A stretch of 64,000 nucleotides of DNA, from the NCBI GenBank assembly GCA_049303835.1, contig JBAQNN010000002.1:161978-225977 (forward strand), in the 5' to 3' direction. The notes beneath the pieces were generated by a model that searched no databases, was not told the origin of the DNA, and saw only the letters and a program-made list of their open reading frames with translations. The position numbers and the translations under genes were made by a program. This DNA comes from Minisyncoccia bacterium. Its GTDB lineage: Bacteria > Patescibacteriota > Minisyncoccia > Phycocordibacterales > UBA9973. Below are positions 3,537 to 61,756 of this stretch, piece by piece (position 1 is the first letter of the stretch; the number at the start of each line of letters is the position of its first letter).

Positions 3537-4493
3537 CTATCTTCTATAAACAGAAATTTTATATTTTTTAAGAAAATTAACTGGGTGGTAACTTGTTTTT
3601 GATTTTTTAATATATTCAATTCCCAAATCCTGTTCCCAATTCCAGTAGAGTATGCTTCTGCTCAAAAAATACTGAGCCAAATTTTTATTTAAAAAATCAT
3701 AAATACCTTTATATGATATATCTGCCTTGATGAAGTGAGACGTTGCATATTGGAAGGGAGATATTTCATCAACACTAAAGCCAATCATGGTGTTGTGTAA
3801 AAACACACACGATAGAATCAATTTTTCATCGTTAACTGCTTGCAACAATCTTTTTATTGCCATTTCTTCGTATTCAAAGTCGTAATTTTTTTTGTCTATT
3901 ATTTTCTTATCTTTCCAATGGCGAGACACAGAAATGATTTGCTCATGTATCTCTGCACTGTTTATCTTTTTAATCTCAAAATGTGCGTCAGGGTACTCGC
4001 GAGAGAATTTGTCTGCGGAATGTCTTTTACCTTTAAATTTTACCCCACGCAAACTTGCCAATTCGGATACATTGAATACATAATCAAAGTTGTCTCTATC
4101 TTCTTCTACTAAAAACTCTGAGCCCGATAAATTATTTACTGATTCTTCGGGAACAAGACGAAGCACGGCAGATACCCCAGATTTTTCGGCAAAATGAACA
4201 AGTTCACGCACGGTGTTTTCGGTTTCGTTGGTGCCCAAAAAGGAAAAAAATGGTTCACAAGTTTCATAATCGGTGAATCGTATAACAAGATTTTCATTCA
4301 ACTCAGAGATCATGCGTTCATTTTTGATGTCCCACGACCACAAGCTTGTAAAGTTGAAATCAGAATAAGGCTGGTATTTGTGAGTAAATGATTCAATTGC
4401 CTCTCTGTCCTCAAGGTCAATTTTTTTAAAATTAGGAAATTTGGGAATCATATAATCTATAATAAACCACACAACCAAGACCGCAAAAACCAA
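3537..4493 (-). CDS. Hypothetical protein, possibly DUF2156 (MprF C-terminal-like aminoacyl-lipid synthase domain)
   Basis: N-terminal motif YSDFNFTSLWSW resembles the DYSFANLFIW signature of LPG-synthase C-terminal domains; weak. Confidence 0.35.
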   Translation of the reverse strand: MVFAVLVVWFIIDYMIPKFPNFKKIDLEDREAIESFTHKYQPYSDFNFTSLWSWDIKNERMISELNENLVIRFTDYETCEPFFSFLGTNETENTVRELVHFAEKSGVSAVLRLVPEESVNNLSGSEFLVEEDRDNFDYVFNVSELASLRGVKFKGKRHSADKFSREYPDAHFEIKKINSAEIHEQIISVSRHWKDKKIIDKKNYDFEYEEMAIKRLLQAVNDEKLILSCVFLHNTMIGFSVDEISPFQYATSHFIKADISYKGIYDFLNKNLAQYFLSRSILYWNWEQDLGIEYIKKSKTSYHPVNFLKKYKISVYRR

Positions 4494-4563
4494 TCTATGT
4501 ATGCATATTGTACCAGTAACCGAGAAAACTTGCCATGCAAAATGGACATGTTATGATTGAGGC

Positions 4564-4920
4564 ATGTTAGACAAGAAAAAAATAAAAGAAAAGCTGGAAA
4601 AGGAGAGAGACGCTCTGCTTGAGCAGATGAAAGGTATGGGAAAGTTGAGTGGTGAAACCGGTGAGTGGGAAGCCATCCCAGAGGAGCAGGAATTTCCTGA
4701 AGCGGACGAAAACGACAAGGCGGACCGCTTTGAAGATTTTGAGGCCAGGAGCTCTATGGTAAAAACTCTAGAACCAAGATTAAAAAATATTTTGAAAGCT
4801 CTGAAGGGATTGAACAGGGAATCTTTTGGCAAGTGTGAAGTTTGCAAAAAAGATATAGAAATGACACGTCTGGAGGTAAACCCTGCGGCGAGAACTTGTA
4901 AGAAACACCTTGAAAGTTGA
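4564..4920 (+). CDS. DksA/TraR-family C4 zinc-finger protein
   Basis: Coiled-coil N-terminus plus CEVC-x17-CKKH zinc-finger at the C-terminus. Confidence 0.7.
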   Translation: MLDKKKIKEKLEKERDALLEQMKGMGKLSGETGEWEAIPEEQEFPEADENDKADRFEDFEARSSMVKTLEPRLKNILKALKGLNRESFGKCEVCKKDIEMTRLEVNPAARTCKKHLES

Positions 4921-5006
4921 AAGTAAAAAAAGTTTTAAAGTTGAAAGTAGATTTTTTTGAATTTAAACTTTAAGAACATTATGAACTTTGTAACTTTAAA
5001 CTACTA

Positions 5007-6593
5007 ATGAGTTTTGCAAAAGTTTATTCAGCACAAGTCAATTTGCTTTCCGGCGTCATTGTGACTATTGAAGTAGATCTCTCGCGGGGATTGCATACTT
5101 TTAGTATTGTCGGTCTGCCGGATAAGGCGGTAGATGAATCCAAAGATAGAGTAAGTGGTGCTATCAAAAACTCCGGGTTTCAATCTCCCAAGGCCAAAAA
5201 CCAAAAAATAATCGTTTCTCTATCACCGGCGGATTTGAAAAAAGAAGGGCCGTTTTTTGACCTCGCTATCGCTATTGCTTATATGCTCGCGGCGGGGGAT
5301 ATCAAATTTAATTCGGAGAAAAAAATTTTTCTAGGGGAGCTCGGGCTAGATGGCACCCTAAGGAGAATTCGCGGAGCCTTGCCACTCGTTCAGGAGGCAA
5401 AAAGACTCGGGTTTGAAGAAATATATTTGCCGAAAGAAAATGCGGTTGAGGCGGCTCTAGTAGAAGGGGTTACCATTTTTGGGGCAGATAGTTTACAAGA
5501 AGTAGTGGAACATATTGATGAGACAAAAATTTCCCACTTTGATAAGGAAGGGGCAGGAGGTGGTAATTTAAAAAATAAAATTCCCGCTCAACCTAAAACA
5601 AAAATTATTTATAAAAAAGAAACACGAGGCGCGGATTTTTCCGATATTCGCGGACAAGAAGGTGCCAAAAGGGGACTGGAAATTGCGGCGGCCGGTGGAC
5701 ACAATATCGCTATGTATGGACCACCAGGTACAGGCAAGACGATGCTCGCCCGTGCGTTCTCCCAACTTTTGCCGGATTTGGAGGTAGAAGAAGTTTTAGA
5801 AATTACCGGTATCCATTCGGTGGCTGGAAGCACTAAAGGAGAGCTCGTCTGTTCTCCACCATTCCGCTCTCCACATCATACCGCTTCTTATGTTTCCATT
5901 ATCGGTGGAGGTACTTATCCCAAGCCCGGGGAAGTGACTTTGGCTCATCGGGGGGTTTTGTTTCTGGATGAATTTCCGGAATTTGAAAAAAGAGTCGTAG
6001 AATCTTTGCGACAACCACTTGAAGATAATTTGGTTTCTATCTCTCGGGCCAAAGGTTCGGCCGTTTTTCCTTCCAATTTTATTTTAGTGGCGGCGATGAA
6101 CCCTTGTCCTTGCGGAAATGCCGGCAACAAACAAAAAGCTTGTGTATGCAAGCCTTCTGACTTGGATAGATACAAGAGAAAGCTCTCCGGGCCTATCGTA
6201 GATCGTATTGATTTGTGGGTGTCCGTCGGTAACGTGGATTACAAGAAATTGGGAGGGGAAGGAACGGGCGAAAAAAGTGAAAGTATAAAAAATAGAATAT
6301 TGCGTGCGCGAGAGCTTCAGAGAAATAGATTTAAAAATTTTCAAAAAGATATTGGGAGAAATATCACGACCAACAGTGATATGAGTGTAAAAGATTTGGG
6401 GCTGATGGTGCCTCTCGGTGGTAAAGTGCGGGATATGTTAGACGACAGTGCTGAACGTTTGGGTTTATCTGCTCGCGCGTATCACCGGGTCATCAAAATC
6501 GCCCGCACCATAGCAGACCTAGAAGGCTCCGAAAATGTGGAAGAAAATCACATACTGGAGGCGATACAGTATAGGCCAAAAGTGAATAGTTAA
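5007..6593 (+). CDS. comM: YifB/ComM family Mg-chelatase-like AAA+ ATPase
   Basis: N-terminal Lon-like domain (SxVxLxGxxVxIEVDLSRGLHxFxIVGLPDKAV), Walker A GPPGTGKTMLA, C-terminal ChlI domain. Confidence 0.85.
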   Translation: MSFAKVYSAQVNLLSGVIVTIEVDLSRGLHTFSIVGLPDKAVDESKDRVSGAIKNSGFQSPKAKNQKIIVSLSPADLKKEGPFFDLAIAIAYMLAAGDIKFNSEKKIFLGELGLDGTLRRIRGALPLVQEAKRLGFEEIYLPKENAVEAALVEGVTIFGADSLQEVVEHIDETKISHFDKEGAGGGNLKNKIPAQPKTKIIYKKETRGADFSDIRGQEGAKRGLEIAAAGGHNIAMYGPPGTGKTMLARAFSQLLPDLEVEEVLEITGIHSVAGSTKGELVCSPPFRSPHHTASYVSIIGGGTYPKPGEVTLAHRGVLFLDEFPEFEKRVVESLRQPLEDNLVSISRAKGSAVFPSNFILVAAMNPCPCGNAGNKQKACVCKPSDLDRYKRKLSGPIVDRIDLWVSVGNVDYKKLGGEGTGEKSESIKNRILRARELQRNRFKNFQKDIGRNITTNSDMSVKDLGLMVPLGGKVRDMLDDSAERLGLSARAYHRVIKIARTIADLEGSENVEENHILEAIQYRPKVNS

Positions 6594-6964
6594 AAACCAC
6601 CGAGACCGCAAGCGGCATTTTTTGTTTGCATAAGAACTTCCCAAGAGCACCACTGGTGCCAAAGAAGCATGTCTACTAAGAAAGTTATGATGACTAAAGA
6701 CACGAGGGCCGCAAAGATTCTTATTGTTCCTTCAATTTCAGACCTTCTTATTAAATAACCAGCCAAACCGATGCTGCCTATACCTACAATTAAAGACAAT
6801 GGTTGCGAAAGGGAAGCTATCGTGTTCCAAATACCAAATGGCACAAAAAGACCCACAAACATTACCAAAGGTCTCAAGGGGTCTACACGAAGAAAAAACA
6901 TTAATAAATATAATAGGGTAGACCCAATCCATATACTCCAAATGCTAGTAAAAAACTTTTTCAT
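6590..6964 (-). CDS. Small integral membrane protein
   Basis: 124 aa with 3-4 hydrophobic helices; 4-bp overlap with comM. Confidence 0.4.
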   Translation of the reverse strand: MKKFFTSIWSIWIGSTLLYLLMFFLRVDPLRPLVMFVGLFVPFGIWNTIASLSQPLSLIVGIGSIGLAGYLIRRSEIEGTIRIFAALVSLVIITFLVDMLLWHQWCSWEVLMQTKNAACGLGGF

Positions 6965-7023
6965 AATTTGATTATATCAAACAAGGCTATTTCAGCTGTC
7001 AGAAGTTATCCACAGAGGGCAAG

Positions 7024-7052
7024 TTGACAGTGAACGAGCGTTCACCTATACT
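7024..7052 (+). promoter_or_regulatory. Sigma70-type promoter TTGACA-17-TATACT with an SOS (Cheo-type) box GAACGAGCGTTC in the spacer
   Basis: TTGACA at 7024-7029, palindrome GTGAACGAGCGTTCAC at 7030-7045, TATACT at 7047-7052; lies upstream of a small ORF and lexA. Confidence 0.6.
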
Positions 7053-7104
7053 ATACACATAGGTTGTTTGAGGTCGTTTTATAAAAAATAAATAGTATAA
7101 ATTT

Positions 7105-7311
7105 ATGTCACAAACACAATATCTAAAAATGCTAGAAAGAGAGATACAGAGAGTCAACAGGAAAATTGACTTGAAGATCTTGGAAGGAAGAAATTATATG
7201 AAAGAGGCGAGAGAGCACAAACTCCTCTTGAAGAAAGTTCGTTATCACTCCCGAAGGAATTTCTTTAGCAAGTTTTTCCCGACTCTTTTTAATTCCAGGT
7301 TTCAGTTCTAA
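7105..7311 (+). CDS. Small coiled-coil protein, first gene of the putative SOS-box-controlled lexA operon
   Basis: 68-aa ORF between the LexA box and lexA, 3 bp from the lexA start; charged heptad-like sequence. Confidence 0.35.
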   Translation: MSQTQYLKMLEREIQRVNRKIDLKILEGRNYMKEAREHKLLLKKVRYHSRRNFFSKFFPTLFNSRFQF

Positions 7312-7314
7312 CTC

Positions 7315-7881
7315 ATGAAAAATTCTCATCAAATTAAATTAGAATCTTTCTACACGGAAAACAAAAGGATGCCTACGTATTCGGAGATGATGAAACTTTT
7401 TGGTTTCAAATCTAAAAATGCTGTTTTCAAAGTCGTGGAGAGACTGATAGAGGCGGGAATGGTGGCCAAGGATCATTTGGGTAGACTAATTCCTGCAAAA
7501 TCTTTTGGTGAAATTCAGATGGCAGGGTTTGTGACGGCAGGACTTCCAGCTAATGTAGAAGAGGAATTGGTAGACACGGTAAACCTGGATGACCTTCTGA
7601 TTAAAAACAAGCCCCTTACTTATATGCTAGAAGTGGATGGAGACTCCATGATAGATGCGCATATAGAGAAAGGGGATATGGTGCTAGTAGAGAAGACGAA
7701 TACCGCCAAAGACGGACAGATAATTATTGCCGAAGTGGATGGGGAATTTACGATGAAATATTTTAAGCAAGAAGGGAACAAAGTCTGGCTGGAGCCGGCC
7801 AACAAAAACTATAAACCGATTTATCCGGGGCATTCGCTAAATATAAATGCCGTGGTAAAAGCGGTGATTAGAAAATACTAG
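7315..7881 (+). CDS. lexA: LexA repressor (S24 peptidase)
   Basis: N-terminal wHTH; Ala-Gly cleavage site (QMAGFVTAG); catalytic Ser/Lys region DGDSM...KTNTAKDGQIIIA. Confidence 0.9.
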   Translation: MKNSHQIKLESFYTENKRMPTYSEMMKLFGFKSKNAVFKVVERLIEAGMVAKDHLGRLIPAKSFGEIQMAGFVTAGLPANVEEELVDTVNLDDLLIKNKPLTYMLEVDGDSMIDAHIEKGDMVLVEKTNTAKDGQIIIAEVDGEFTMKYFKQEGNKVWLEPANKNYKPIYPGHSLNINAVVKAVIRKY

Positions 7882-15296: not shown

Positions 15297-15632
15297 ATGG
15301 TTTATAAAATGCAATTAGCAACTGAATATTTTAATAAAATTAGAAACGGTATTAAAACTATCGAATGTCGTCTTTTTGATGAAAAACGTAAATTATTAAA
15401 AATTGGTGATGTTATTGAGTTTGTAAATGCAGGGAATGAAGAGGAAAAAATTAAAAGTGAAATAGTGGCATTGCATAAATTTTCTAATTTTTCAGAATTA
15501 TTAGATTGTTTTCCAATAACAATATTTGGAGGTGAAAATAAAGAACAATTTCTTTCTGTATTAAAAAAATTTTACTCTGATGAAGATGAAAAAAAATATG
15601 GAGTAGTTGGAATTGAAATAAAACTTATTTAA
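15297..15632 (+). CDS. ASCH-domain protein, YqfB-like (N4-acetylcytidine amidohydrolase family)
   Basis: IRNGIKTIECR ... GDVIEFV ... LKKFYSDEDEKKYGVVGIEI parallels E. coli YqfB (ILAGRKTITIR ... GDVLRV ... LKKVIADIYP...FYVIEF). Confidence 0.6.
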   Translation: MVYKMQLATEYFNKIRNGIKTIECRLFDEKRKLLKIGDVIEFVNAGNEEEKIKSEIVALHKFSNFSELLDCFPITIFGGENKEQFLSVLKKFYSDEDEKKYGVVGIEIKLI

Positions 15633-15695: not shown

Positions 15696-17036
15696 CTAGA
15701 CGGGAACGATCTCGAAGACGACGATTCCGAGTTTTTCTTTCTCCGGCGGATAAATCCGCTTGAGAAGCTGGAGCACTTCTTCCTTGGAAGAGAGGTCTGG
15801 GGCGATCTGTTCCCAGGATTCGTTGTCAAGAAGTGCTTCGATGGACAAGTGTCTTCGTACGGCGTTGATTCGTACGTCGATCGTGTTCTCGTGTGAGATG
15901 AGGCGGATCCGTTCACCAGCCTGGATGCGGTTGATGTTGTCGTATCCGACTCTCACTTCCAGGTTCTTTCGACCTGCACGGATGAGGTTGATGAAACGAG
16001 GTTTGACTCTCATGTTTCTCATTGTGCTAGCTCCTATCTCCAGACTCCACTGGTAGGTTGTGATGCCGGGTCGGTAAGCGGATGGCATGGCTGCATCGAG
16101 CTTCCAGCCAAAACGCTGCATTGACATTACTTCGTTAGCTGTCGGGTTGATATGGATGTAGAGCTTTCGACCATAACGCACGAGCTGGTGGGGAAGGTCG
16201 ACGAGCAATGCTTCGAAGGATGCTCTGTTGGTTGCTACAAGTGGCATCACCTTGATTGGTTCACCTTTTTTGGGAGTCATTCCTGCGACACCGAGTACTT
16301 GTCCGGAGCTGTCTACGGCGACGTAAACCAGCTTAAACTTGGAGTTGATGTCGCCACTGGCTCGTCTTCTATAACCACCGTAAAGAGCCCTGACCCAGTT
16401 CTCGTCGACACCACCAAACGAGTTGGGAAGTGTTTCGAGGAGAAGTTTGGTCACCTGCTTTTCGTACTTGTCTTCGAAGGGTAACACAGAAATCTGGATC
16501 TTGTCATACTCTGCTACTTCTTCAGCGAGATGGAAAGTCTTATAGATCATACTTTCGACCATGCCCGCTTTGTAGTGGCTATCTGAACTTCCAGCCCTGA
16601 TGTAACCCTTCTTGAGGAAAAACTGCATGGCTGCAATGTTCTGTTCGGCCACTGTGGCGTATATCTGTCGTGCCCCGTGAAGCTTCGCGTACTCTTCTGC
16701 GTGTTTGAGAAGAATGCTTCCTATACCACGCTGTCCTCGAACACTGGGTTCGAGAATGAGTGGGCTTAGTTTGTAAGTACCTTGTCTTTTACCAACAAGA
16801 TGAACCATTCCGACAGAAGCGCCATTGTACTCAGCGATGAACATTTTCTGTTCGAACGAAAAGAATCCGACCAGATCATGTCCTCCAGTGAGGTGAGCGT
16901 TGAGGATACGTTTAGCGTGAGCTCGATGATCTCCGCCATAGTAAGGCTCGAGAGCTTCTTGCATGAGGTTTGACACCCATGATGAGTCTTCTTCGACTGC
17001 TTCTCGAATTACTAAGACCGTTTCTTCATTTGTCAT
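15696..17036 (-). CDS. Tandem GNAT acetyltransferase fused to a C-terminal YqfB-like ASCH domain; GC-rich relative to flanks
   Basis: Two acetyl-CoA-binding GNAT cores (e.g. RGQRGIGSILLKHAEEYA). The C-terminal 100 aa (RFINLIRAGRKNLEVR ... LKRIYPPEKEKLGIVVFEI) is homologous to the adjacent stand-alone ASCH ORF. Visibly higher GC than neighbours. Confidence 0.65.
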   Translation of the reverse strand: MTNEETVLVIREAVEEDSSWVSNLMQEALEPYYGGDHRAHAKRILNAHLTGGHDLVGFFSFEQKMFIAEYNGASVGMVHLVGKRQGTYKLSPLILEPSVRGQRGIGSILLKHAEEYAKLHGARQIYATVAEQNIAAMQFFLKKGYIRAGSSDSHYKAGMVESMIYKTFHLAEEVAEYDKIQISVLPFEDKYEKQVTKLLLETLPNSFGGVDENWVRALYGGYRRRASGDINSKFKLVYVAVDSSGQVLGVAGMTPKKGEPIKVMPLVATNRASFEALLVDLPHQLVRYGRKLYIHINPTANEVMSMQRFGWKLDAAMPSAYRPGITTYQWSLEIGASTMRNMRVKPRFINLIRAGRKNLEVRVGYDNINRIQAGERIRLISHENTIDVRINAVRRHLSIEALLDNESWEQIAPDLSSKEEVLQLLKRIYPPEKEKLGIVVFEIVPV

Positions 17037-19725: not shown

Positions 19726-19862
19726 AATGATGAATTGTATATTACTTTTCTATTTTTGTAAAACAAAAAGTCTTTAAATCTATACCCTAAAACAACTTTC
19801 TTTTTGACTTTTTGGAAAAAATATTTCGTAAAGATGGACTGTGGATAACTGCTCTTGCAACT

Positions 19863-19897
19863 TGCTTTTTATCACTTTTTGTGGTATATACAGAGAA
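19863..19897 (+). promoter_or_regulatory. Candidate promoter for the GC-rich secreted-protein gene
   Basis: TTGCTT-17-TATATA with a TG extended -10 (tgGTATATA); GGAGG RBS 8 nt before the ATG at 19982. Confidence 0.4.
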
Positions 19898-19981
19898 AGA
19901 GTCAAAGTTCTTCGTCAGAAGAAAAAGACTAACAGCACAACAGGTCTCGTCCTAAAAAGGCGGGGCCGGAAGGAGGACGTC

Positions 19982-20758
19982 ATGCGTCTCATCGTTGTCA
20001 CCCTCGTTTCCTTCGTACTGGCGTTCTCCGCGAACGCTCAGCCTCTCAACATCGACCCCGAGGTGCGTAGCACGTCGGCGATGTCGGAAAGCTCGGCGCG
20101 TCTGCCTCGGATGGCTCGCGCTCCGCAGATGGAGCCCACACTGTGGACTCCGTGGGAAGCCGCGGTCGTCGTCCGGTCCTCTGGACAGGTGGGGACCAAC
20201 GACATCTTCTCGGTGTCGTGTCACATTTTTACCCCCCTGCCGAAATGGGCAATGACCGAATCTTGGATCCGAAAGCCTGATGGGGAGGTTTATCTTCCCT
20301 CAGTACTTAGGGAGGACATCACTGTTCCCGATCTTTCGGGATGGCAGTGGTGGATCTGGAACGAACCTCTCCCGGCAGACTGGCCGGCTGGAGTGACCAC
20401 CTTTGAACTCATCGTTACCATCGGCTGGGGGACTCCGGACGAGAGGAAATACACCGCTGTCGCTAGGGTGGCGACGGGGGGGGTATATCCCGCCGGGGAT
20501 CCTCCTCGATTCGGACCTCTGGAAGATGCCATCGTGGACTCATCTGGAGGAGTGATTCTCCGTGGGGTCTTTAACACCCCTCCGGTCGTGGTTGCTCCCG
20601 ACTGGGTCGTCAGGAAGATTGAACTGGAGGGCGACTACTACGTCCCTCCTGGTTCCATCGGTGCTGGAAACAGACCTCTCGGTGTGTGCTCCGGCGTCAA
20701 TGGTGACCCCAACCACCTGGAGTGCTCCACTCAGATCGTATCAATCCCTGTTTTCTAG
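19982..20758 (+). CDS. Secreted protein of unknown function encoded in a GC-rich island (about 60% GC by eye)
   Basis: Signal peptide MRLIVVTLVSFVLAFSANA-QP; strong GGAGG RBS; abrupt GC shift near 19925; Trp/Pro-rich mature protein. Confidence 0.6.
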   Translation: MRLIVVTLVSFVLAFSANAQPLNIDPEVRSTSAMSESSARLPRMARAPQMEPTLWTPWEAAVVVRSSGQVGTNDIFSVSCHIFTPLPKWAMTESWIRKPDGEVYLPSVLREDITVPDLSGWQWWIWNEPLPADWPAGVTTFELIVTIGWGTPDERKYTAVARVATGGVYPAGDPPRFGPLEDAIVDSSGGVILRGVFNTPPVVVAPDWVVRKIELEGDYYVPPGSIGAGNRPLGVCSGVNGDPNHLECSTQIVSIPVF

Positions 20759-20782
20759 AGTCGCAAGACTCATCTCTCGGGT

Positions 20783-20822
20783 TCCTCGCGCGTTCGCGCG
20801 CGGGGGACCCACTTTGTTTTTA
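20783..20822 (+). terminator. GC-rich hairpin terminator ending the island
   Basis: CGCGCG-ttcg-CGCGCG followed by GGGGGACCCACTTTGTTTTT. Confidence 0.55.
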
Positions 20823-20833
20823 GTAGTAATTAT

Positions 20834-20860
20834 GTGGATAAAACTTATCCACTTTTTTTT
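20834..20860 (+). terminator. Second, AT-type terminator: perfect 8-bp IR plus T8
   Basis: GTGGATAA-aac-TTATCCAC-TTTTTTTT. Confidence 0.5.
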
Positions 20861-20909
20861 ATTTGTAGTATAATTTGTATATTATAAAAGAATTAAGGAG
20901 TAGATAAAT

Positions 20910-23705
20910 ATGAATTATAAATTTTCAAATTTTTTTGTTTTATTTGTTTTAATAATTGGATCTTTTTTATTTGTTAATAATATAGTTTCTGCCCAAACAT
21001 CATGCCAAGGTGTCGCACTTCGTGAAGCTGTGTGGGTTCCTGATCATTCTTATGCATACCAAGCATGCGGAACTGCCATCACTAATTGTTCTAGTGGTCA
21101 ACAATGTGTCCCCAACACGGGTAGAGATGAGAATTCTATAAATACAAAAATAGGACCATCGGGGGAAGAACCGAGTCTGGGGAGTAGCGTCTATTGTGGA
21201 AAGAGAGCTACTTGCGTCACTCCTAGCTTTGATGTAACCACAAGTAAAACAGGTGATCTTGCAAGCACGGCTACAGTCACTCCCAACCTTAAGACAGTTT
21301 CATCTGGTAGCACAGCTTCATTCACTTTGAGTCCTGGTTTCAGTACACAGGTTGTAGGATGTTCATTAGGTTCATTTTCTGGTAATGTTTATACCACTGG
21401 TCCAATTAGTGGAAATTGTAATGTACAGTTCAATTTCCCCGCTCCTCCTCTCTCCTGTGCCGTAGATACTGCCGCTACCCCTGCTCCTCATCTTATAAAT
21501 AATACGGTAAAATTTTTAGCGACCGGTGGAACAGGTACATGGTCTTGGACCAATACTGATGGTGGTACTCCTTCAACTGGAACAGGAAATCAAATCTGGC
21601 CTGCTTGGAGCACTACCGGGACAAAGACAGTGACTGTCACGAGTGGAACACAGACAAAAACTTGTACCGTTAACATAACAAATCCACCCACCCCTCCTCT
21701 CTCTTGTGCTCACGACACAAATCAAGCAGAGCCGATTTATACAGGTGCCGGAGCTAAATTCCGAGCGACCGGTGGAACGGGAACATATTCATGGACATAT
21801 AGCGCTACTCCATCAGCTGGGAATCCAACTTCCGGAATTGAAGTCTGGCCTGCTTGGACCAACTCGGGGACAAAGACTGCGACAGTGACAAGCGGATCAC
21901 TGACAGCGAATTGCACTGTGTATATAACACCACTTCCAGCCACTCCCATTAATGGTGTTTGTGCGACTACACACTATGCCTGTGGTAGTCCTGCGGCCAG
22001 TACAAATAATAGTAGTTTGAATCCCAGTCTTTGGACTTGGACTTGCCCCGGTTCAAATGGCGGAACAAATGCATCTTGTTCAGAATTAAAGCCAGCGATG
22101 AATGGCACCCTCAATGCCACCAACTGTATTATTAACGGAAACGCAAGTAGTTGTACTTCTACAGTGACTTGGAGCACAGTAAGTCCTGTCGGCACATCCA
22201 ATGTCACTTCCAATACTCCGAGCGCTAACACTGTAATCGGCACCGGAATTTCCGGTTCTACTACGGCGATTATCTCTTACAACTCTAGAAATTTTTATCT
22301 AAACAATAATGGAGTTCAACTCGCGTCTGATATAGCCACCGCTACTTGTGCCACTGGCACCAGTTGGAATGGAAGTATCTGCGCGGTCGTAGCAGTTGTA
22401 GGCCCAGACCTGACCGCTTCCGCTCCAGTTCCTGGATTGGCGACAGTGAATGTGCCTCGTACTTTCTCTGCAAATATTTCAAACATCGGAAGTTCATCTA
22501 CGGCAGTTTCCTTCCAAAATCAATTTCAGGTAGCAAGCCTGGCAAACGGTGGAGGTACTATTACCAATCTTACTCCTACCGTCCCCACGACTGCTCTCGG
22601 AGGTGGGGTAGCAAGGGATATCACTTCTCCTCCTCACACTTTTACGGCTATTGGAACCCAATCTATCAGAGTTTGTGCTGATATACCTCCGCAACCAAAT
22701 GGTGTGGTGGTTGAAGCAAACGAAAGCAACAACTGTAGTCCTTGGACAAATGTAACCGTCGATACCACTGTTTGTACAATAACCGGGTATCACGATGCTG
22801 CCAGTGGAACTGTCCCCGCCTCTCAATGTCAAGCCAATGGCTGGGCCGCTTGTTCTAATGATAAGGCGCTTGACTTAAATATCCGAGTTTTGAGTGATGG
22901 GGTACAGGTAACGACAGGAACAGCCGGGACCTACCGAGGTGATCTTGAAGCTGCGGGTGTCTGTACTGGGGGCACTTGTTCATACTGGACAAATTTATCA
23001 GGTCTCATCACTCCAGGAGTAAACCACACGATAACCGCTCAGGCCCAAAATCCAGGAAATGGAGTATGGACTACTTTGACATCAAGTCCCAGAATTATAA
23101 ATTGTGGGGCGCCTACGACGGGCACTCTCACTGCTTCTGATTGTACTATTGCTCAAAACGCAAGTAGTTGTAGTTCTACTGTAGGTTGGAGTACTACAAA
23201 TCCTGTCGGTACATCAAATGTTACTTCCAATACTCCTACCCCTAATTTTCTAATTGCGAACGGCAATTCAGGAGCGCTTTCAGTTACTGTTCCATATAAT
23301 TCTAGAACTTTTTTCCTTAATAATAATTCTGTGACAATAGCCACAGACACAGCGAACGCCACTTGTGTCTCGGGTACGGTTTGGGATGGTAGTAAGTGTT
23401 ATGCAGCTCCTCCTTCAGTCTGTGGAAATGGTGTGAGAGAGGGAGCTGAATCATGTGACCTGGGTGGTGGCAATGGTGCTTGTCCTTCTTTGTGTAGTAC
23501 CTCCTGCACCATCAATTCGTGTGCGGTACCGACCAATGGTTCTTGTGGAACTCCGGCAGCACATTACAACTGTGCATCTCCTCAACCAAGCATCAATCAA
23601 GTGAATGGTATAAGTTCTTGGACTTGGACATGTCCTGGAGCAGATGGAGGAGCGAGTGTCTCATGTGAGGAGCTCAAAAAGAAACCGATAATCATAGAAG
23701 ACTAA
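20910..23705 (+). CDS. Large secreted Cys/Thr/Ser-rich repeat protein; probable adhesin
   Basis: Signal peptide. Two tandem repeats of about 85 aa (PPLSCAxDT...ATGGTGTxSWT...TKTxTVTSG...CTVxIT). Two repeats of about 100 aa (C...NASSC.STV.WST..PVGTSNVTSNTP...YNSR.F.LNNN). Three CxSPxxSxNxxxxxxxWTWTCPGxxGGxxxSCxELK modules. One CGNGVREGAESCDLGGGNGAC motif resembling the Myxococcus cysteine-rich repeat. Confidence 0.75.
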   Translation: MNYKFSNFFVLFVLIIGSFLFVNNIVSAQTSCQGVALREAVWVPDHSYAYQACGTAITNCSSGQQCVPNTGRDENSINTKIGPSGEEPSLGSSVYCGKRATCVTPSFDVTTSKTGDLASTATVTPNLKTVSSGSTASFTLSPGFSTQVVGCSLGSFSGNVYTTGPISGNCNVQFNFPAPPLSCAVDTAATPAPHLINNTVKFLATGGTGTWSWTNTDGGTPSTGTGNQIWPAWSTTGTKTVTVTSGTQTKTCTVNITNPPTPPLSCAHDTNQAEPIYTGAGAKFRATGGTGTYSWTYSATPSAGNPTSGIEVWPAWTNSGTKTATVTSGSLTANCTVYITPLPATPINGVCATTHYACGSPAASTNNSSLNPSLWTWTCPGSNGGTNASCSELKPAMNGTLNATNCIINGNASSCTSTVTWSTVSPVGTSNVTSNTPSANTVIGTGISGSTTAIISYNSRNFYLNNNGVQLASDIATATCATGTSWNGSICAVVAVVGPDLTASAPVPGLATVNVPRTFSANISNIGSSSTAVSFQNQFQVASLANGGGTITNLTPTVPTTALGGGVARDITSPPHTFTAIGTQSIRVCADIPPQPNGVVVEANESNNCSPWTNVTVDTTVCTITGYHDAASGTVPASQCQANGWAACSNDKALDLNIRVLSDGVQVTTGTAGTYRGDLEAAGVCTGGTCSYWTNLSGLITPGVNHTITAQAQNPGNGVWTTLTSSPRIINCGAPTTGTLTASDCTIAQNASSCSSTVGWSTTNPVGTSNVTSNTPTPNFLIANGNSGALSVTVPYNSRTFFLNNNSVTIATDTANATCVSGTVWDGSKCYAAPPSVCGNGVREGAESCDLGGGNGACPSLCSTSCTINSCAVPTNGSCGTPAAHYNCASPQPSINQVNGISSWTWTCPGADGGASVSCEELKKKPIIIED
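21451..21950 (+). repeat. Intragenic tandem duplication of about 250 bp encoding the Ig-like Thr-rich module
   Basis: Protein-level repeat PPLSCAVDTAATP... / PPLSCAHDTNQAEP... is mirrored at the DNA level. Confidence 0.5.
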
Positions 23706-23770
23706 ATAACAACAAACAAAAAAATCCCTCAGTATTTTTATTGGGGGATTTTTTTGTTATAATATATGTA

Positions 23771-25531
23771 ATGCAAATCAATGAAGAACAGTTGAAGAAA
23801 TTTATTTTGGATTCAGGTTTGGTGAAAAGTTCTCAGTTGGAAGAAGCGGAGGAAAAAGCAAAAAAAACGAAACAAAAAATCGGAGATATTTTGCTTTCTG
23901 ATGGGAAAATTTCTGAAACGGATTTGAAACGGATGGAGGCTTTTGTGCTGGGGATACCATTTATCAGTCTGGCCAATCAAAAGATAGAATTCTCTGTTCT
24001 TTCTCTCATTCCCGAACCTATCGCACGCAACTACAACATAGTCGCTTACAAAAAAAATGAAAGCACCTTGGAGGTGGCGATGCTAGATGTGGATGATTTA
24101 CCAGTAATTGATTTTATCAAGAAGCGTTCAGGGTTAAAAATATTACCGAGACTCACCGATACGGTTTCCATCAGGTATGTGCTCGTACAATATAGGCAGA
24201 GTCTAGAAACGGAATTTCAAGATATTATCCAAAAAGAATCTTTGTCTCTCAATGTTTCTGCTTCGGAAGACGGGAAAAAATCAGGAGAAAAATCGGAGTC
24301 CGAATTAAAAGATTTGGCAGAAGATTTACCGGTGGTAAAAATTGTAGATTCTCTCATTTTCCATGCTATCTTGCAAAATGCATCCGACATTCATATTGAG
24401 CCCGGGGAACACGAGCTCACCGTACGCTATAGAATAGACGGTATCCTCCATGATGCGATGGTGTTGGACAAAAATGCGGGGATGGGGATAACGGCACGTA
24501 TCAAAGTGCTCTCCAATCTAAAGCTTGATGAAAAAAGATTGCCCCAAGATGGAAGATTTAAGATAGAACAAAACGGAGAAAAAATTTCTTTCCGTGTTTC
24601 TACTTTGCCGATTTTCTTTGGAGAAAAAACTGTCATCAGAATTCTTAAAGAAAATGCACACGGATTTTCTTTGGAGACACTCGGTTTTCATGGCGAAGGG
24701 CTGGAGAGAATTCATAATTCCATGAAACAAAAAACGGGCATGGTACTAGCCACTGGCCCGACAGGCTCCGGTAAGACCACCACCCTCTACACGATGCTTG
24801 ATATTTTAAATAGGCCTGAAGTCAATATCTCTACCGTAGAAGACCCTATTGAGTACCAGATGCCGAGAGTGAACCAAACCCAAGTCAAACCAGAAATAGG
24901 ACTGACCTTTGCCAACGGACTTCGTTCTCTTTTGCGCCAAGACCCTGATATCGTGATGGTAGGGGAGATTCGTGACGGAGAGACGGCAGGGTTGGCCATC
25001 AATGCCTCCCTCACTGGGCACTTGGTGCTCTCCACTATTCACACGAATTCCGCCTCTGGGGCAATTCCGAGACTGATAGACATGGGAGTAGAGCCGTTTC
25101 TGATAACAGCGACAGTCAAAACTATCATCGCGCAGAGATTGGTCCGCAGACTCACCGAGGAAAAAGAAAAATATTTTTTATCACCTACGGATATAAAAAA
25201 TTTGGAAAAGATTGTTGACCTGGACAGGGTATTGGATTTCTTGAAAAAAGAAAATATAGTAGGTGAAAAAGATACTATGGATAAAATTCCTTTTTACAAA
25301 CCAACGAAAAGTACTGAATTCAAAGATGGGTACTCTGGCCGTATCGGTATGCATGAAGTATTGAAAGTGACTCCGACGATAAGAGAAATGATCATCAAAG
25401 GCGCTTCTCAGGATGAGATAGAAATTCAAGCAAAAAAAGAAGGGATGATGACGATGATTGAAGACGGAGTATATCAAGCGGTGCTCGGAGTCACGACCTT
25501 AGAAGAAGTGTTCCGGGTGGTTTCCGAATAA
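23771..25531 (+). CDS. pilB: Type IV pilus assembly ATPase PilB (GspE family)
   Basis: GSPII_E N-domain, Walker A GPTGSGKTTTLYTML, Asp/His boxes. ATG at 23771 preferred over the upstream TTG at 23741; a TATAAT at 23757-23762 suggests a leaderless start. Confidence 0.85.
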   Translation: MQINEEQLKKFILDSGLVKSSQLEEAEEKAKKTKQKIGDILLSDGKISETDLKRMEAFVLGIPFISLANQKIEFSVLSLIPEPIARNYNIVAYKKNESTLEVAMLDVDDLPVIDFIKKRSGLKILPRLTDTVSIRYVLVQYRQSLETEFQDIIQKESLSLNVSASEDGKKSGEKSESELKDLAEDLPVVKIVDSLIFHAILQNASDIHIEPGEHELTVRYRIDGILHDAMVLDKNAGMGITARIKVLSNLKLDEKRLPQDGRFKIEQNGEKISFRVSTLPIFFGEKTVIRILKENAHGFSLETLGFHGEGLERIHNSMKQKTGMVLATGPTGSGKTTTLYTMLDILNRPEVNISTVEDPIEYQMPRVNQTQVKPEIGLTFANGLRSLLRQDPDIVMVGEIRDGETAGLAINASLTGHLVLSTIHTNSASGAIPRLIDMGVEPFLITATVKTIIAQRLVRRLTEEKEKYFLSPTDIKNLEKIVDLDRVLDFLKKENIVGEKDTMDKIPFYKPTKSTEFKDGYSGRIGMHEVLKVTPTIREMIIKGASQDEIEIQAKKEGMMTMIEDGVYQAVLGVTTLEEVFRVVSE

Positions 25532-25555: not shown

Positions 25556-26773
25556 ATGCTTTTTTCATACAGCGCAAAATCAAAAGAGGGAGGAGTGGTA
25601 GAAGGCACGATGGAGGCCGTGGACCGTTTTGTTCTGTCCAGGGATTTGAGATCTAAAGGACTGCTTCCTTTGTCTATCTCGGAACAGGGAGCCACTTTGT
25701 CGGGCAGGATCAATCAGTTGTTGGATCAATTTTCAAAAGTAAGTGTTGCTGAGCAGATTATTTTTACAAAAAATTTAAGTGGAATGATAAAAGCAGGTTT
25801 GTCGCTATATCGTGCTTTGTTGGTTTTACAAAAACAGACCAAAAATCCCACCTTGAATAAAATTCTGACATCTATCTCTGCCGATATAAATGCGGGGGGA
25901 ACCCTCTCTTCTGGTCTCGCAAAATTTCCAAAAGTTTTTTCAAAACTTTTTATTTCCATGACTCGGGCCGGTGAAGAATCTGGAAATTTGGCCGGATCTC
26001 TTTCGGATATAGGATTAAATTTAGAGAAGTCTCATTCTTTGACGAAGAAAATACACGGGGCTCTCATCTACCCGGGAGTCATTATGTCGGCTATGGTCGT
26101 CATCGGAGTTTTGATGTTTGCTTTTGTGGTGCCCACTTTGGCTAGTACCTTTAAGGAGCTCGGTGTGGTTTTGCCCGCTTCCACCCGAGTGCTTATCTTT
26201 TTTGGTAATTATTTTTCCAATAATCTGGTTTTAACTTTTGTAATTTTGATTTGTGTTAGTTTCGGACTAGTCTCTCTCTTTAAAGCTCAATTTATGGCGA
26301 AATATATTGATTTTGCTGTCGTTCGGTTTCCCTTGATAAAAAACTTGGTGAAAGAATTGAATACTGCCCGTACCGCTCGTAGTATGTCTTCACTTCTGTC
26401 CTCCGGAGTCTCTATCACGCGAGCGGTTGAAATTACCGAAGATGTCGTCCAAAACATTTATTACAAAAAAGTATTGAATGAAGCGAAAATTTTGGTGGAG
26501 AAAGGTTCTCCCTTTTCTCAAGCTTTCGCGGCCAATGTAAATCTTTATCCGATAATGATGTCTGAGATGATTCAGGTCGGAGAAGAGACTGGAAAATTAT
26601 CGGATATGTTGATTCAAATAGCCTTGTTTTACGAAGAAGAGGTTGAGAATAAAACAAAAAATCTTTCTACCATCATTGAACCACTCCTCATGGTAGTCAT
26701 CGGAGCAGGGGTAGGATTTTTTGCGATCTCAATGATTTCTCCTCTATACTCAATTTTGGGTAGTATTGAGTAA
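25556..26773 (+). CDS. pilC: Type IV pilus inner-membrane platform protein PilC (GspF family)
   Basis: Two GspF repeats; 405 aa; immediately downstream of pilB. Confidence 0.85.
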   Translation: MLFSYSAKSKEGGVVEGTMEAVDRFVLSRDLRSKGLLPLSISEQGATLSGRINQLLDQFSKVSVAEQIIFTKNLSGMIKAGLSLYRALLVLQKQTKNPTLNKILTSISADINAGGTLSSGLAKFPKVFSKLFISMTRAGEESGNLAGSLSDIGLNLEKSHSLTKKIHGALIYPGVIMSAMVVIGVLMFAFVVPTLASTFKELGVVLPASTRVLIFFGNYFSNNLVLTFVILICVSFGLVSLFKAQFMAKYIDFAVVRFPLIKNLVKELNTARTARSMSSLLSSGVSITRAVEITEDVVQNIYYKKVLNEAKILVEKGSPFSQAFAANVNLYPIMMSEMIQVGEETGKLSDMLIQIALFYEEEVENKTKNLSTIIEPLLMVVIGAGVGFFAISMISPLYSILGSIE

Positions 26774-28848: not shown

Positions 28849-30174
28849 TTAAGGTGTAAGGGTTATATTTTCTTCCTGTCGTGGGGCGGAAATATCCACT
28901 GAACTAACGGAAGTGGTGTACCCAGTTTTAGAAATAGTAAGTGTATAGGTACCACTAACGAGACCATTCCAAAAAACTTGGCCCGGAGTAGAACACGGGA
29001 GAGAGTTTGTTGTCTTGTTTTGATTAAACTCATCTTTTTGTAGTTGTACGGTTGCTCCATCAATAGGATTACCCAGGGAATCTTCTACGGAAATTAGCAG
29101 AGCGTTGTCTAAATGAGGCACGACTACCATTTGTAAGTTTTTATTTTCTCCCGGATTTATTGTAAAACTAGGGAGTAGTGTTGAACCGGCAAAATCATAA
29201 GCAGTAGTGTCCAGTAGTAAATGGTAAGTGTCCCATTCTAAATTGGAAATTGTCTCTTCTCCCGAAGAATCAGTGGAGAAATTTTCAGTGGGGTATTTTA
29301 GAACGGAAGGTGTCCCTATAAGCTTGGTCCCAGTTAGAGAAAAATCAATATTTGGAATCATTATGCAGGATGCATCTACAGAAGAAACATTGAGAGAACT
29401 AACTCTATCTATCAAAAGACTGGTTTGAGTGACTTGTTGCAGTACGACAGTCGCGTCTTCATTGATGGGATTTTCTCCCGCAATTCCAGATTTGGGGTAT
29501 GTTTGGTCTTCGGTGTATCCAGATTTGGTGGCGATGATATTGTAAGTATTTATTCCCGGGGGTACATCCACTATTTTTACCCAACCAGTATTGTCAGTTA
29601 TTTCATTTATAATTATGTCCGGATTAGTTGCAGTATTTAAAATACTGACTGAAGTATTTGGTACAGGAATACCAGCGGTGTCAAAGACTTGGATAAAAAG
29701 AGCTCCGTTTGAAGAAGCAGTTTCAAGTGCGTGAGGAGCTACTAGCGTAGTAAATTTTAGGGGTGAAAAAACTTTACAACTTATACAAGTGAGGTCTAAA
29801 TCAACTGATTTATAATCTGCCGGGGAAGTATCTGATGGACTTCCTCCGATTGTTCCATCAAAAGTGTCGTCTATATTTCTTATGGTAGTTTGAACATCAA
29901 AAGAATAGTTATCTTTTGTTATTGTTTCATTTCTTACGATTTTTCCTGCCGGAATACCATTTTCTATACCGATATCATCGTAAGGTAAGTTACGTATAAT
30001 TTCAAATTTTTCATTAGCCAGTGTAGTAGCGGCAAGTTTTGCTTGTGAGATAGAAACTGCGTCCATCAGTACACCAAAAGCCCTATAAGCCGACAATGCT
30101 AGTATGACAAATACCGCACTACCGACTAAAGTTTCTATGAGAGTGAATCCCTTTTTGGTTGTAAGTGAATTCAT
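28849..30174 (-). CDS. Large prepilin-type pilin-like protein (441 aa)
   Basis: MNSLTTKKG-FTLIETLVGSAVFVIL class III signal peptide. Confidence 0.65.
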   Translation of the reverse strand: MNSLTTKKGFTLIETLVGSAVFVILALSAYRAFGVLMDAVSISQAKLAATTLANEKFEIIRNLPYDDIGIENGIPAGKIVRNETITKDNYSFDVQTTIRNIDDTFDGTIGGSPSDTSPADYKSVDLDLTCISCKVFSPLKFTTLVAPHALETASSNGALFIQVFDTAGIPVPNTSVSILNTATNPDIIINEITDNTGWVKIVDVPPGINTYNIIATKSGYTEDQTYPKSGIAGENPINEDATVVLQQVTQTSLLIDRVSSLNVSSVDASCIMIPNIDFSLTGTKLIGTPSVLKYPTENFSTDSSGEETISNLEWDTYHLLLDTTAYDFAGSTLLPSFTINPGENKNLQMVVVPHLDNALLISVEDSLGNPIDGATVQLQKDEFNQNKTTNSLPCSTPGQVFWNGLVSGTYTLTISKTGYTTSVSSVDISAPRQEENITLTP

Positions 30175-45848: not shown

Positions 45849-46058
45849 ATGGTGAAGTGCGGGTTGTCATCCACCCCCGAAGAAGTCGTGTTGGAGAAAA
45901 CGGCGAATCGGATCCTTCACCGGGCGGGGTATCGTCTGGACGGCACCCCGGAGCGGCCGGAACGCCGGCACCAGGTCCACACCGTCAACCTGACGGCGGA
46001 GATGATCCAAGCGCTCGACACCTGTCGTTTCGCCAAGAAGATCTCCGGGGCTCAGTAG
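45849..46058 (+). CDS. Small GC-rich orphan ORF (69 aa), possibly ribbon-helix-helix/antitoxin-like
   Basis: GGAGG RBS then ATG; GC-rich coding segment; C-terminal HTVNLTAEMIQALD resembles an RHH beta-strand/helix; followed by its own hairpin terminator. Confidence 0.35.
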   Translation: MVKCGLSSTPEEVVLEKTANRILHRAGYRLDGTPERPERRHQVHTVNLTAEMIQALDTCRFAKKISGAQ

Positions 46059-61324: not shown

Positions 61325-61756
61325 ACATCCATAAAATTTTTCTCTTCTCTTTGCATCTTGTATGAAATTGTGTTAAGATACGTCTATGGATATAGGCATA
61401 AAATGCCAAGTTATCCACATAATATATTGCTCTATTTAAGAGCTGTATTATAATGTGATTGTGTTTATGGAGTGCACGTCTGTGTATTCTGTATTCACAA
61501 ATTGTATTTATTTTCACTTCATAAAAATTCACTTCTGATTTCGTCGAAAAAATCAAAAGAGAATAAAGTGAAAATAAGGAAGGATCATTGAAAACTTAAT
61601 AGCTATGTTTTCAATGTAGTTTATATCTGGTCGTTGTTTCGCAATCCGCTACATTATTAAAATTTATTAGTTATAAGCGGAGTAGGGATAACGATAAGAA
61701 AAATACGCCTTTAGTTTTGTCGAAACTTATTAATGGCGTAAAAATTAGAAAAATAT

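Follow-up and report, generated by a model that had tools for sequence, protein, structure and literature searches.

A GC-rich gene for an orphan secreted protein and its structured leader RNA at an adhesin/type IV pilus locus of Minisyncoccia

When a single gene stands out sharply from its genome in base composition, has it arrived recently from elsewhere, or can it be an old resident whose composition is kept? The question is raised by a locus in a 64,000-nucleotide (nt) stretch of a Minisyncoccia bacterium (GenBank assembly GCA_049303835.1, contig JBAQNN010000002.1, positions 161,978 to 225,977 of the forward strand), hereafter the window, to which all coordinates refer. The mean GC content of the window is 40.1%, and 19881-20840 is its sole long run of 200-nt intervals above 53% GC, with a peak of 66%. 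Inside this run, the segment 19940-20812 has approximately 59-60% GC and contains one gene, whose coding sequence (CDS; 19982-20758, forward strand, ATG at 19982) encodes a secreted protein of 258 amino acids (aa). The GC content is 56% in the 5' segment (19925-19981), 59.2% in the CDS, and 68.5% in the 3' segment (20759-20812), and then falls to only 18.6% at 20813-20909. The GC content at third codon positions (GC3) of the CDS is 0.66, against 0.37 ± 0.07 in the 54 other open reading frames (ORFs) of the window, i.e., a distance of approximately 4 standard deviations; this comparison of codon usage had been proposed in the original prediction, which was made from the sequence alone. That prediction described a GC-rich island with a single secreted-protein gene, an AT-rich promoter, a GGAGG ribosome-binding site, the ATG at 19982, and two terminators, all of which was borne out, with the length of the product corrected from 259 to 258 aa.

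The same prediction took the gene to have been captured from a GC-rich organism of actinobacterial type, and this part was not supported. In Nomurabacteria-like Minisyncoccia (Patescibacteria), the gene has long been resident and is passed on in one constant place, at the head of the adhesin-pilB-pilC locus, and its high GC is a conserved trait at substitutional equilibrium. We are highly confident that it is a resident gene with maintained GC and not a recent horizontal gene transfer (HGT). The best explanation overall, which we favor slightly, is that of a resident orphan gene whose GC content and structured message are both kept by selection.

An old resident gene at a fixed position

Homologues were sought with a word-indexed search and an exhaustive HMMER profile search, in 5.8 and 1.84 billion proteins, respectively, which returned 10 close homologues and 34 cluster representatives. 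No homologue in a GC-rich lineage was found in these searches; all are in AT-rich Minisyncoccia/Nomurabacteria-like relatives, the named sources being a Minisyncoccia metagenome-assembled genome (MAG) and a Candidatus Nomurabacteria MAG. The original prediction had proposed such a search and had named, as one half of the outcome that would speak against capture, homologues that all come from relatives of this genome, and this half is what was found. Twenty-four loci with approximately a dozen distinct gene versions (loci are designated by L numbers where needed) were fetched from assemblies in ENA, JGI, Logan, and NCBI. A scan of GTDB species-representative genomes gave no locus of the family, and a metagenome scan contributed one new locus only; the wider family alignment was too diverse for pattern scanning.

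In the contigs that are long enough, the gene order is constant: the H+-pyrophosphatase/NusA side, the family gene, directly thereafter a giant surface protein (930-1170 aa, CARDB-type, in the relatives), PilB, and PilC. The family gene occupies the same site in every relative recovered, with no patchy presence, and the suggested tie to the adhesin/type IV pilus locus is thus retained across the relatives. On the NusA side, a toxin-antitoxin, Abi, or radical-SAM gene is inserted in some relatives. As for signatures of mobility, no tRNA was found within the window and no integrase among the neighbor genes.

In every lineage for which DNA is available, the family genes have 55-61% GC (GC3 0.53-0.70), against 16-49% in their flanks, and the genomes that carry them have 33-50% GC. 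The contrast is kept even at 31-35% protein identity (L014 and L022), and in L017, whose genome has approximately 50% GC, the GC3 of the family gene is 0.70. The orthologous neighbors are AT-rich, i.e., NusA (85-94% identical) and the upstream 262-aa gene (87%, GC3 0.30-0.35), and the adhesin is 32-73% identical across the relatives with a GC3 of 0.22-0.45. The amino acid composition follows the same trend: across all 43 family sequences, the residues G, A, R, and P (GARP) account for 0.31 and the residues F, Y, M, I, N, and K (FYMINK) for 0.17, compared with 0.22 and 0.31 in the proteins of the window.

The jump in composition is by itself what would be seen if foreign GC-rich DNA had been joined into a contig of the candidate phyla radiation (CPR) during assembly or binning. 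However, the same AT-rich/GC-rich junctions, within the same architecture, are present in more than 12 independent assemblies (ENA, JGI, Logan, and NCBI), and they fall within conserved promoter and terminator sequence. Because identical junctions recur in so many independent assemblies, a chimeric join is excluded, and the probability of an artefact is negligible; here, the original prediction, which had judged the gene not to be contamination, was right.

The synonymous sites tell whether the composition is transient. Between the window and its three closest relatives, the synonymous divergence (dS) of the gene body is 0.74-1.2, compared with 0.58-1.0 in neighboring genes, and synonymous sites are saturated against more distant relatives. 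In the four closest sequences, the synonymous singletons at third positions comprise 21 changes from G or C to A or T (S>W) and 16 in the opposite direction (W>S), whereas a ratio of approximately 3.3:1 would be expected if the gene were decaying to the genomic GC3 (binomial p=0.01). In a neighbor gene 250 bp away, at a GC3 of 0.30, the corresponding counts are 21:21, and the W>S rate per site is approximately 3 times higher in the GC-rich gene than in this neighbor. Because dS is high, the synonymous changes are balanced, and all homologues are GC-rich within AT-rich contigs, the high GC is maintained and is not the unameliorated trace of a recent transfer for which it had been taken.

A recent capture from a GC-rich organism, e.g., the host, of a gene that then became domesticated under a native promoter would account for the abrupt switch in composition of a self-contained transcription unit, for the GC-type amino acids, and for the toxin-antitoxin or Abi genes that adjoin in some relatives. 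It would leave unexplained that two protein searches of very large size gave no homologue from beyond the clade, that position and GC contrast are constant in the relatives down to 25-35% identity, that GC3 is unchanged although dS runs from 0.6 to more than 1 with W>S changes balancing S>W changes, and that leader, promoter, and terminator are conserved together with the CDS. We therefore regard it as extremely unlikely. The locus does share with a classical acquired genomic islet the sharp contrast in GC, GC3, and codon usage, the single accessory-looking secreted protein, and the toxin-antitoxin genes nearby in some relatives. It differs from one in its fixed syntenic site throughout the clade, the lack of donor homologues, the composition at equilibrium, and the co-conservation of a regulatory RNA and a promoter.

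That the ancestor of the clade long ago received the gene from a GC-rich donor not yet sampled, and that selection later froze the composition, is a proposal that concerns the origin of the gene only and is compatible with a maintained composition. Such an origin fits the GC-type bias that the whole family shows both in its amino acids and at each of the three codon positions, and it fits at least two other unrelated GC-rich genes that persist in the clade and could be a cohort of old imports. On the other hand, no donor is seen among the 34 representatives found in 1.84 billion proteins, and a force that actively holds GC would still be needed, so that the transfer explains nothing beyond what maintenance explains; we rate it as rather unlikely. 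Compositional islands are routinely read as recent transfers, and the finding that an island of textbook appearance is an old resident calls for caution with HGT calls that are based on such islands in Patescibacteria. No description of this protein family, of the leader motif described below, or of the maintained-GC phenomenon was found in the literature. What is new here is an orphan secreted protein family with a structured leader RNA, linked to an adhesin/type IV pilus locus; a stable compositional island at equilibrium is an unusual evolutionary behavior, whereas gated mRNAs and lineage-specific surface proteins are of already known kinds.

Leader RNA and folding of the message

The transcript carries a conserved structured leader that is predicted to occlude the Shine-Dalgarno (SD) sequence, and its coding body appears densely paired. 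The leader structure was derived with RNAalifold from ten sequences, with partner-slid controls and 500 shuffles. Hairpin P1 (UUCUUC-GUCA-GAAGAA, 19908-19923, forward strand, as are all elements of the transcription unit) lies in the 5' untranslated region and is present in the minimum free energy fold; its sequence GTTCTTCGTCAGAAGAA is conserved in close relatives. Hairpin P2 (19943-19967) is a 10-bp helix directly upstream of the ribosome-binding site, with compensatory double changes at 6 pairs and 95.6% of alignment cells paired. The SD region (GGAAGGAGGAC, 19968-19982), which contains the GGAGG core (19972-19976) and extends through the A of the AUG, is invariant among the relatives and provides the 5' strand of helix P3. 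In this 11-bp helix, GGAGGACGUCA (19972-19982; SD, spacer, and A of the AUG) pairs with an anti-SD strand, UGGCGUUCUCC (20019-20029), which is formed by codons 13-16 (L-A-F-S of the signal peptide). The two segments of P3 have 100% and 97.5% of cells paired, and the synonymous positions of the anti-SD strand are invariant among the relatives. Hairpin P4 (20052-20088, codons 24-36) is a 12-bp helix with double changes at 3 pairs and 98% of cells paired.

Over the whole leader, 97.4% of cells form standard pairs, compared with 39-56% when the partners are slid, and 11 pairs show double changes, compared with 0-3 in the slid controls; none of the 500 shuffles reached the observed value. Synonymous sites are nearly frozen at approximately codons 10-45, where the pairwise codon identity is 0.8-0.9 against 0.47 overall, and dS in the first 50 codons is 0.13-0.23 against 0.74-1.2 downstream. 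Because it includes several G.U pairs, the leader is assigned to the sense RNA. Thermodynamic ensembles predict a mostly paired SD for each of the 11 genes examined (ten family members and an unrelated GC-rich gene of L005, described below), with probabilities of being unpaired of 0.11-0.43. With a covariance model of the leader, each locus gave a single copy, which was invariably the one at the family gene, and no others turned up in the window or the loci. Rfam gave no match in the window at the gathering threshold and only chance-level matches at E≤1.

Leaders that sequester the SD, i.e., ROSE and fourU thermometers, riboswitch platforms, and MS2-type occlusion, likewise have a conserved helix over the SD and the start codon and covarying flanking hairpins. 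In the present leader, however, the anti-SD strand lies 37-47 nt inside the coding region, in codons of the signal peptide, no Rfam family matches, and the element runs on into a second intragenic hairpin. Unlike an RNA thermometer, moreover, it has an 11-bp GC-rich duplex that is too stable for a simple device of this kind.

The remaining parts of the transcription unit are conserved as well. The candidate promoter with an extended -10 element to which the original prediction had pointed, placed here at 19862-19890 (-35 TTGCTT at 19862-19867, a 14-nt gap, and TGgTATATA at 19882-19890), was read from the sequence and scored below the threshold of a consensus scanner, yet it is kept base for base in close relatives and also in L014, L018, and L022; transcription would start at approximately 19897. 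At the 3' end, a mini-hairpin with a GNRA loop (GAGUC-GCAA-GACUC, 20758-20771) starts at the G of the stop codon, and compensatory changes are found in the relatives (UA in five and CG in three at one pair). Terminator 1 (20779-20821) has a 14-bp GC-rich stem, GGGTTCCTCGCGCG-TTCG-CGCGCGGGGGACCC (20779-20810), followed by a T-run, and is kept by the relatives. Together, the GNRA mini-hairpin and the UUCG-capped terminator form a 3' module that is conserved with compensatory changes. Terminator 2 (20833-20860) consists of the hairpin GTGGATAA-AAC-TTATCCAC (20834-20852) and T8.

The folding of the coding message was compared, for each CDS, with that of 40 shuffles in which synonymous codons trade places while protein and codon usage stay the same. 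A first z-score for the whole transcript (-7) was discounted, since terminator hairpins inflate it, and CDS-only codon shuffles with control genes were used instead. The 12 GC-rich CDSs tested at the locus were 11 family members and the unrelated neighbor gene of L005. All 12 are more stable than every one of their shuffles (0 of 40 reach them), with z-scores from -2.5 to -6.9, whereas the z-scores of 17 control genes of 35-56% GC from the window and the relatives lie between +1.6 and -3.4 and average -0.3 (Mann-Whitney p=3e-5). After removal of the first 180 nt, z remains below -2 in 9 of 11 genes, and dinucleotide shuffles give a z of -3.6. No long internal inverted or direct repeats that could explain the excess were found. 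Synonymous sites of the body are not conserved; outside the leader, the amount of pairing is kept and the pattern of pairing is not.

These properties recall rRNA and tRNA genes in AT-rich genomes, in which GC is also held far above the genomic level over the long term in connection with base-pairing; the present locus differs in that it is protein-coding and in that only the amount of pairing is conserved outside the leader. A large structured non-coding RNA, or a dual-function RNA with an incidental ORF, would likewise be GC-rich, fold with strongly negative z-scores, and carry UUCG and GNRA tetraloops. Against this stand the codon-position pattern, purifying selection, the signal peptide, a cysteine pair, and a confidently modeled two-domain fold (see below), together with the lack of any meaningful Rfam match even at E≤1; moreover, since the synonymous sites of the body are not conserved, there is no fixed RNA architecture beyond the leader. 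A pure non-coding RNA was rejected on the codon-position pattern and the modeled fold, and the broader RNA reading is very unlikely.

The most serious alternative for the maintenance of GC is GC-biased gene conversion at a recombination hotspot, in which strains would often swap divergent alleles of this surface-protein gene, with the conserved 5' and 3' ends as handles, and biased repair would raise GC. The alleles are indeed incongruent with their genomes. Compared with the window, L014 is 93% identical in NusA, 93% in PilB, and 85% in PilC, but its GC-rich gene (L014 8100-8924) is only 31% identical, with a nonsynonymous divergence (dN) of 0.81, and its adhesin 55%; L001 is less related (NusA 88%), yet its GC-rich gene is 57% identical to the window copy. 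Because identities of 31% and 57% occur despite NusA identities of 93% and 88%, the clade seems to exchange or to retain divergent alleles. Most patescibacterial HGT stays within the phylum (PMC12455944). Gene conversion would also fit the mosaic of a conserved leader, signal peptide, and terminator with a divergent body, and the raised rate of W>S fixation per site. However, the adhesin gene next to it, with the same pace of evolution and the same degree of incongruence, has a normal GC3 (0.22-0.38); GC drops to 18-30% only a few bases from either end of the transcript, and likewise in the gap between GC-rich genes in tandem; and conversion does not predict folding that exceeds codon shuffles. 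We consider it unlikely.

Several observations weigh against selection on the structure of the message as the explanation. Recombination-linked GC bias is possible, and the divergence of the L014 allele means that inheritance is not strictly vertical within the clade. The polarized substitution counts are small (37 events) and parsimony-based. In the folding tests, the antisense strand is equally over-folded (z of -4.6) and, because of this, the signal of the body outside the leader may arise at the DNA level or from an antisense RNA. The body z-scores of two members are weak (-0.8 in L005 and -1.7 in L001), two control genes reach approximately -3, and the link between structure and GC is correlative. 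Helix P3 shows no double compensatory change, but only one-sided changes among G.U, G-C, and A-U pairs, one of which replaces a G.U pair by G-C through an F>S codon change, with both strands nearly invariant. In single-sequence ensembles, the preferred pyrimidine-rich partner of the SD within the signal-peptide codons differs between sequences. What can be said of the function of the protein derives solely from its position, its secretion signal, and a generic modeled fold.

With these points counted, we give selection on RNA structure, as the force that maintains the high GC, nearly an even chance. The message would be built for dense base-pairing, with GC-ending codons and GC-rich amino acids as the means. 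If this is true, the locus is a rare gene-scale case in which selection at the nucleotide level overrides the genomic mutation bias in a coding gene. The purpose of the structure can be suggested only tentatively; a long-lived, translationally gated message is the most coherent suggestion, and we think it somewhat doubtful. According to this suggestion, a message with a closed ribosome-binding site would remain untranslated and, if it were AT-rich, would be open to attack by RNases and Rho. If its body is compact and GC-rich and both of its ends are capped, the message would survive until a trigger or the first pioneering ribosome opens the leader; a surface or host-contact protein, which would work together with the neighboring adhesin and type IV pilus, could then be made in a rapid burst. 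Stabilized envelope mRNAs, e.g., those with ompA 5' stem-loops or S-layer leaders, similarly have a 5' hairpin, strong 3' hairpins, and a secreted or envelope product. In contrast to these, the shift of 20-25 GC points and the excess of folding here extend over the whole coding body, and the ribosome-binding site seems to be closed, not open.

The encoded protein and the adjacent pilus locus

The sequence evidence indicates that 19982-20758 is a genuine protein-coding gene of a small, fast-evolving orphan family, because differences between homologues follow the order p3 > p1 > p2 by codon position in 28 of 28 pairwise comparisons and dN/dS of the gene body is approximately 0.17-0.19 against the closest relatives, a value similar to that of the adhesin. 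Its N terminus is a Sec type I signal with MR, a hydrophobic core, and ANA|Q; the signal peptide (MRLIVVTLVSFVLAFSANA|QP, encoded at 19982-20038, cleavage at ANA|QP) is conserved among the homologues, and all family members, of approximately 230-300 aa, have one. The NCBI annotation of the gene (WA060_01490, 298 aa) starts approximately 40 codons upstream. This extension would span the promoter and the leader (19841-19981), and the upstream start has no support from the relatives, a ribosome-binding site, or a signal peptide.

The 258-aa protein has no match to a Pfam, NCBIfam, or PDB sequence profile. An AF2 model from 10 sequences was poor (pLDDT 58), and one from a 37-sequence alignment has a pLDDT of 86 and a pTM of 0.75. 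The latter consists of the signal helix, a low-confidence linker of approximately 35 residues, and two Ig-like β-sandwich domains, with a C236-C248 pair. The model thus places the protein in a known fold class, that of two Ig-like β-sandwich domains. A Foldseek search against the PDB gave generic tandem Ig/FnIII sandwiches alone (TM 0.24-0.35, RMSD above 12 Å), i.e., RbmA, pilus chaperones, transglutaminase C-terminal domains, and Fabs. Like Vibrio cholerae RbmA and pilus chaperones of the PapD/FimC type, the protein is secreted, has approximately 200-260 aa and two Ig/FnIII-like domains, and is encoded beside an adhesin/pilus locus; unlike a relative of these, it shares with them only a generic fold similarity (TM of approximately 0.3, RMSD 13-19 Å) and no sequence similarity. 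To our knowledge, type IV pili do not use chaperone-usher assembly.

The gene directly 3' of the GC-rich gene (20910-23705, forward strand) encodes the giant surface protein, or adhesin, of 931 aa, which is secreted and rich in Cys, Thr, Ser, and Gly; CARDB/Flg_new_2 matches are seen in the copies of relatives, and its GC3 in the window is 0.32, which is normal for the genome. The -10 element of its promoter (TATAAT, 20869-20874, forward strand) is downstream of the terminator 2 palindrome. The genes pilB (23741-25531) and pilC (25556-26773) follow. The product of the GC-rich gene has no features of a type IV pilin, i.e., neither a class III signal nor an N_methyl match in Pfam, unlike the product of a pilin-like gene at 28849-30174, which has the N_methyl match. 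That the protein is a domain copy of the neighboring adhesin was rejected on comparison of the two proteins.

Adhesin/type IV pilus loci are thought to be used by ultra-small bacteria for attachment to their hosts. Given its fast evolution, a role of the 258-aa protein in host interaction, as the original prediction had suggested, is plausible. The gene is best read as encoding a surface or host-contact protein specific to the lineage, with selection acting on its message for high GC, strong structure, and translational gating, although the purpose of the structure is an inference. The family and its leader offer concrete targets for studying the regulation of host contact in ultra-small bacteria.

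Other GC-rich genes and a recurrent 9-mer

A second small GC island of the window is an ORF of 69 aa (45849-46058) between the genes for isoleucyl-tRNA synthetase (IleRS) and RecO, with 62% GC and a GC3 of 0.80-0.81. The ORF is served by an AT-rich promoter of its own and a GGAGG site and is followed by a terminator hairpin with a GNRA cap (to approximately 46112); its folding z-score is -1.5 to -2.8. Homologues in L020 and L021 occupy the same position with 65% GC and a GC3 of 0.80 in contigs of 39-40% GC; Rfam, Pfam, and NCBIfam gave no match. The adjacent IleRS (42307-45795, 1162 aa) has a histidine-phosphatase insert (PF00300, approximately residues 502-686) between its catalytic halves, and the same is seen in L021.

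The other case is a gene for a secreted protein of 259 aa directly upstream of the family gene in L005 (184-963) and L002 (3-617), with 57-59% GC, a GC3 of 0.65-0.70, and folding z-scores of -5 to -7. In L005, it is followed by a similar post-stop GAGUC hairpin and a GC-rich terminator. It was considered as a paralogue of the family gene and rejected, as the two have no similarity. These genes suggest that the GC-rich genes may form a class of cassettes with a common expression frame, beyond a single oddity. A bolder proposal, which we regard as improbable, is that the clade has a class of "GC-armoured" genes whose transcripts are selected as stored, nuclease- and Rho-resistant, masked RNA objects and which, in its boldest form, would include bifunctional or exported RNAs in the contact between episymbiont and host. 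With the same low expectation, the present family, the 259-aa secreted protein, and the 69-aa ORF would be its members. If true, selection on RNA structure would keep such genes 20-40 GC3 points richer than their genome.

The next most GC3-rich gene of the window is a GNAT acetyltransferase-ASCH fusion (15696-17036, reverse strand; GC 0.49, GC3 0.54), beside which lies a separate small ASCH gene (15297-15632) with 24% GC and a GC3 of 0.09. In a crude check with uncurated starts, 11 of 15 window genes had no SD-like motif within 20 nt of the start of the longest ORF; the GC-rich genes and the adhesin gene carry strong GGAGG/AGGAG sites, unlike most genes in this check.

The transcription unit is flanked by copies of a DnaA-box-like 9-mer. 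The upstream box, TGTGGATAA (19840-19848, forward strand), is the reverse complement of the DnaA-box consensus TTATCCACA and lies 13 nt upstream of the -35 element; an exact copy is found approximately 130-140 nt before the start codon in most relatives. Downstream, the palindrome TGTGGATAA-aac-TTATCCAC (within 20833-20860) overlaps terminator 2 at the -35 position of the adhesin promoter. All of the first 19 loci fetched (L001-L019), including those at 25-35% protein identity, carry an exact TGTGGATAA box downstream of the gene, 66-85 nt from the stop codon, and most close relatives have the palindrome form at this site; in L022 and L023, the downstream box is absent and the upstream copy alone is kept. 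Copies of TGTGGATAA or TTATCCACA in the window are at 19840-19848, 20833-20853, 7006-7014, 61411-61419, and 40746-40754. Two other genes of the window, one LexA-like and one for a peptidoglycan (PG)-binding protein, have the box 7-9 nt upstream of their -35 elements, and in relatives it is also found upstream of radical-SAM genes. Judged from this distribution, TGTGGATAA is probably a shared operator, activator, or other regulator-binding site, beyond its use as a terminator arm. The flanking 9-mers were also considered as the target-site duplication of a transposon; this was rejected, as the same box occurs in other promoters and upstream of genes in relatives. A gene-orientation switch and a local GC-skew minimum near 13-22 kb raise a link of the box to DnaA and a replication origin, which is not established.

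Two further arrangements were noted at loci that carry the family. In the Nomurabacteria-like relative L014, a radical-SAM/SPASM gene (50% GC, folding z-score of -3.4) and an AT-rich gene of 257 aa lie upstream of the family gene (5587-7757). In L015, the radical-SAM/257-aa pair is duplicated (292-2414 and 3872-5994) together with a DUF6922/AbiEii module, and TGTGGATAA precedes each copy. In the window, the LexA-like S24 peptidase gene (7315-7881) has a promoter with the -35 element TTGACA (7024-7045 region), followed by an SOS box of the Gram-positive type (Cheo box), GAACgagcGTTC, at 7032-7043; the position of this box right after the -35 element is consistent with autoregulation.

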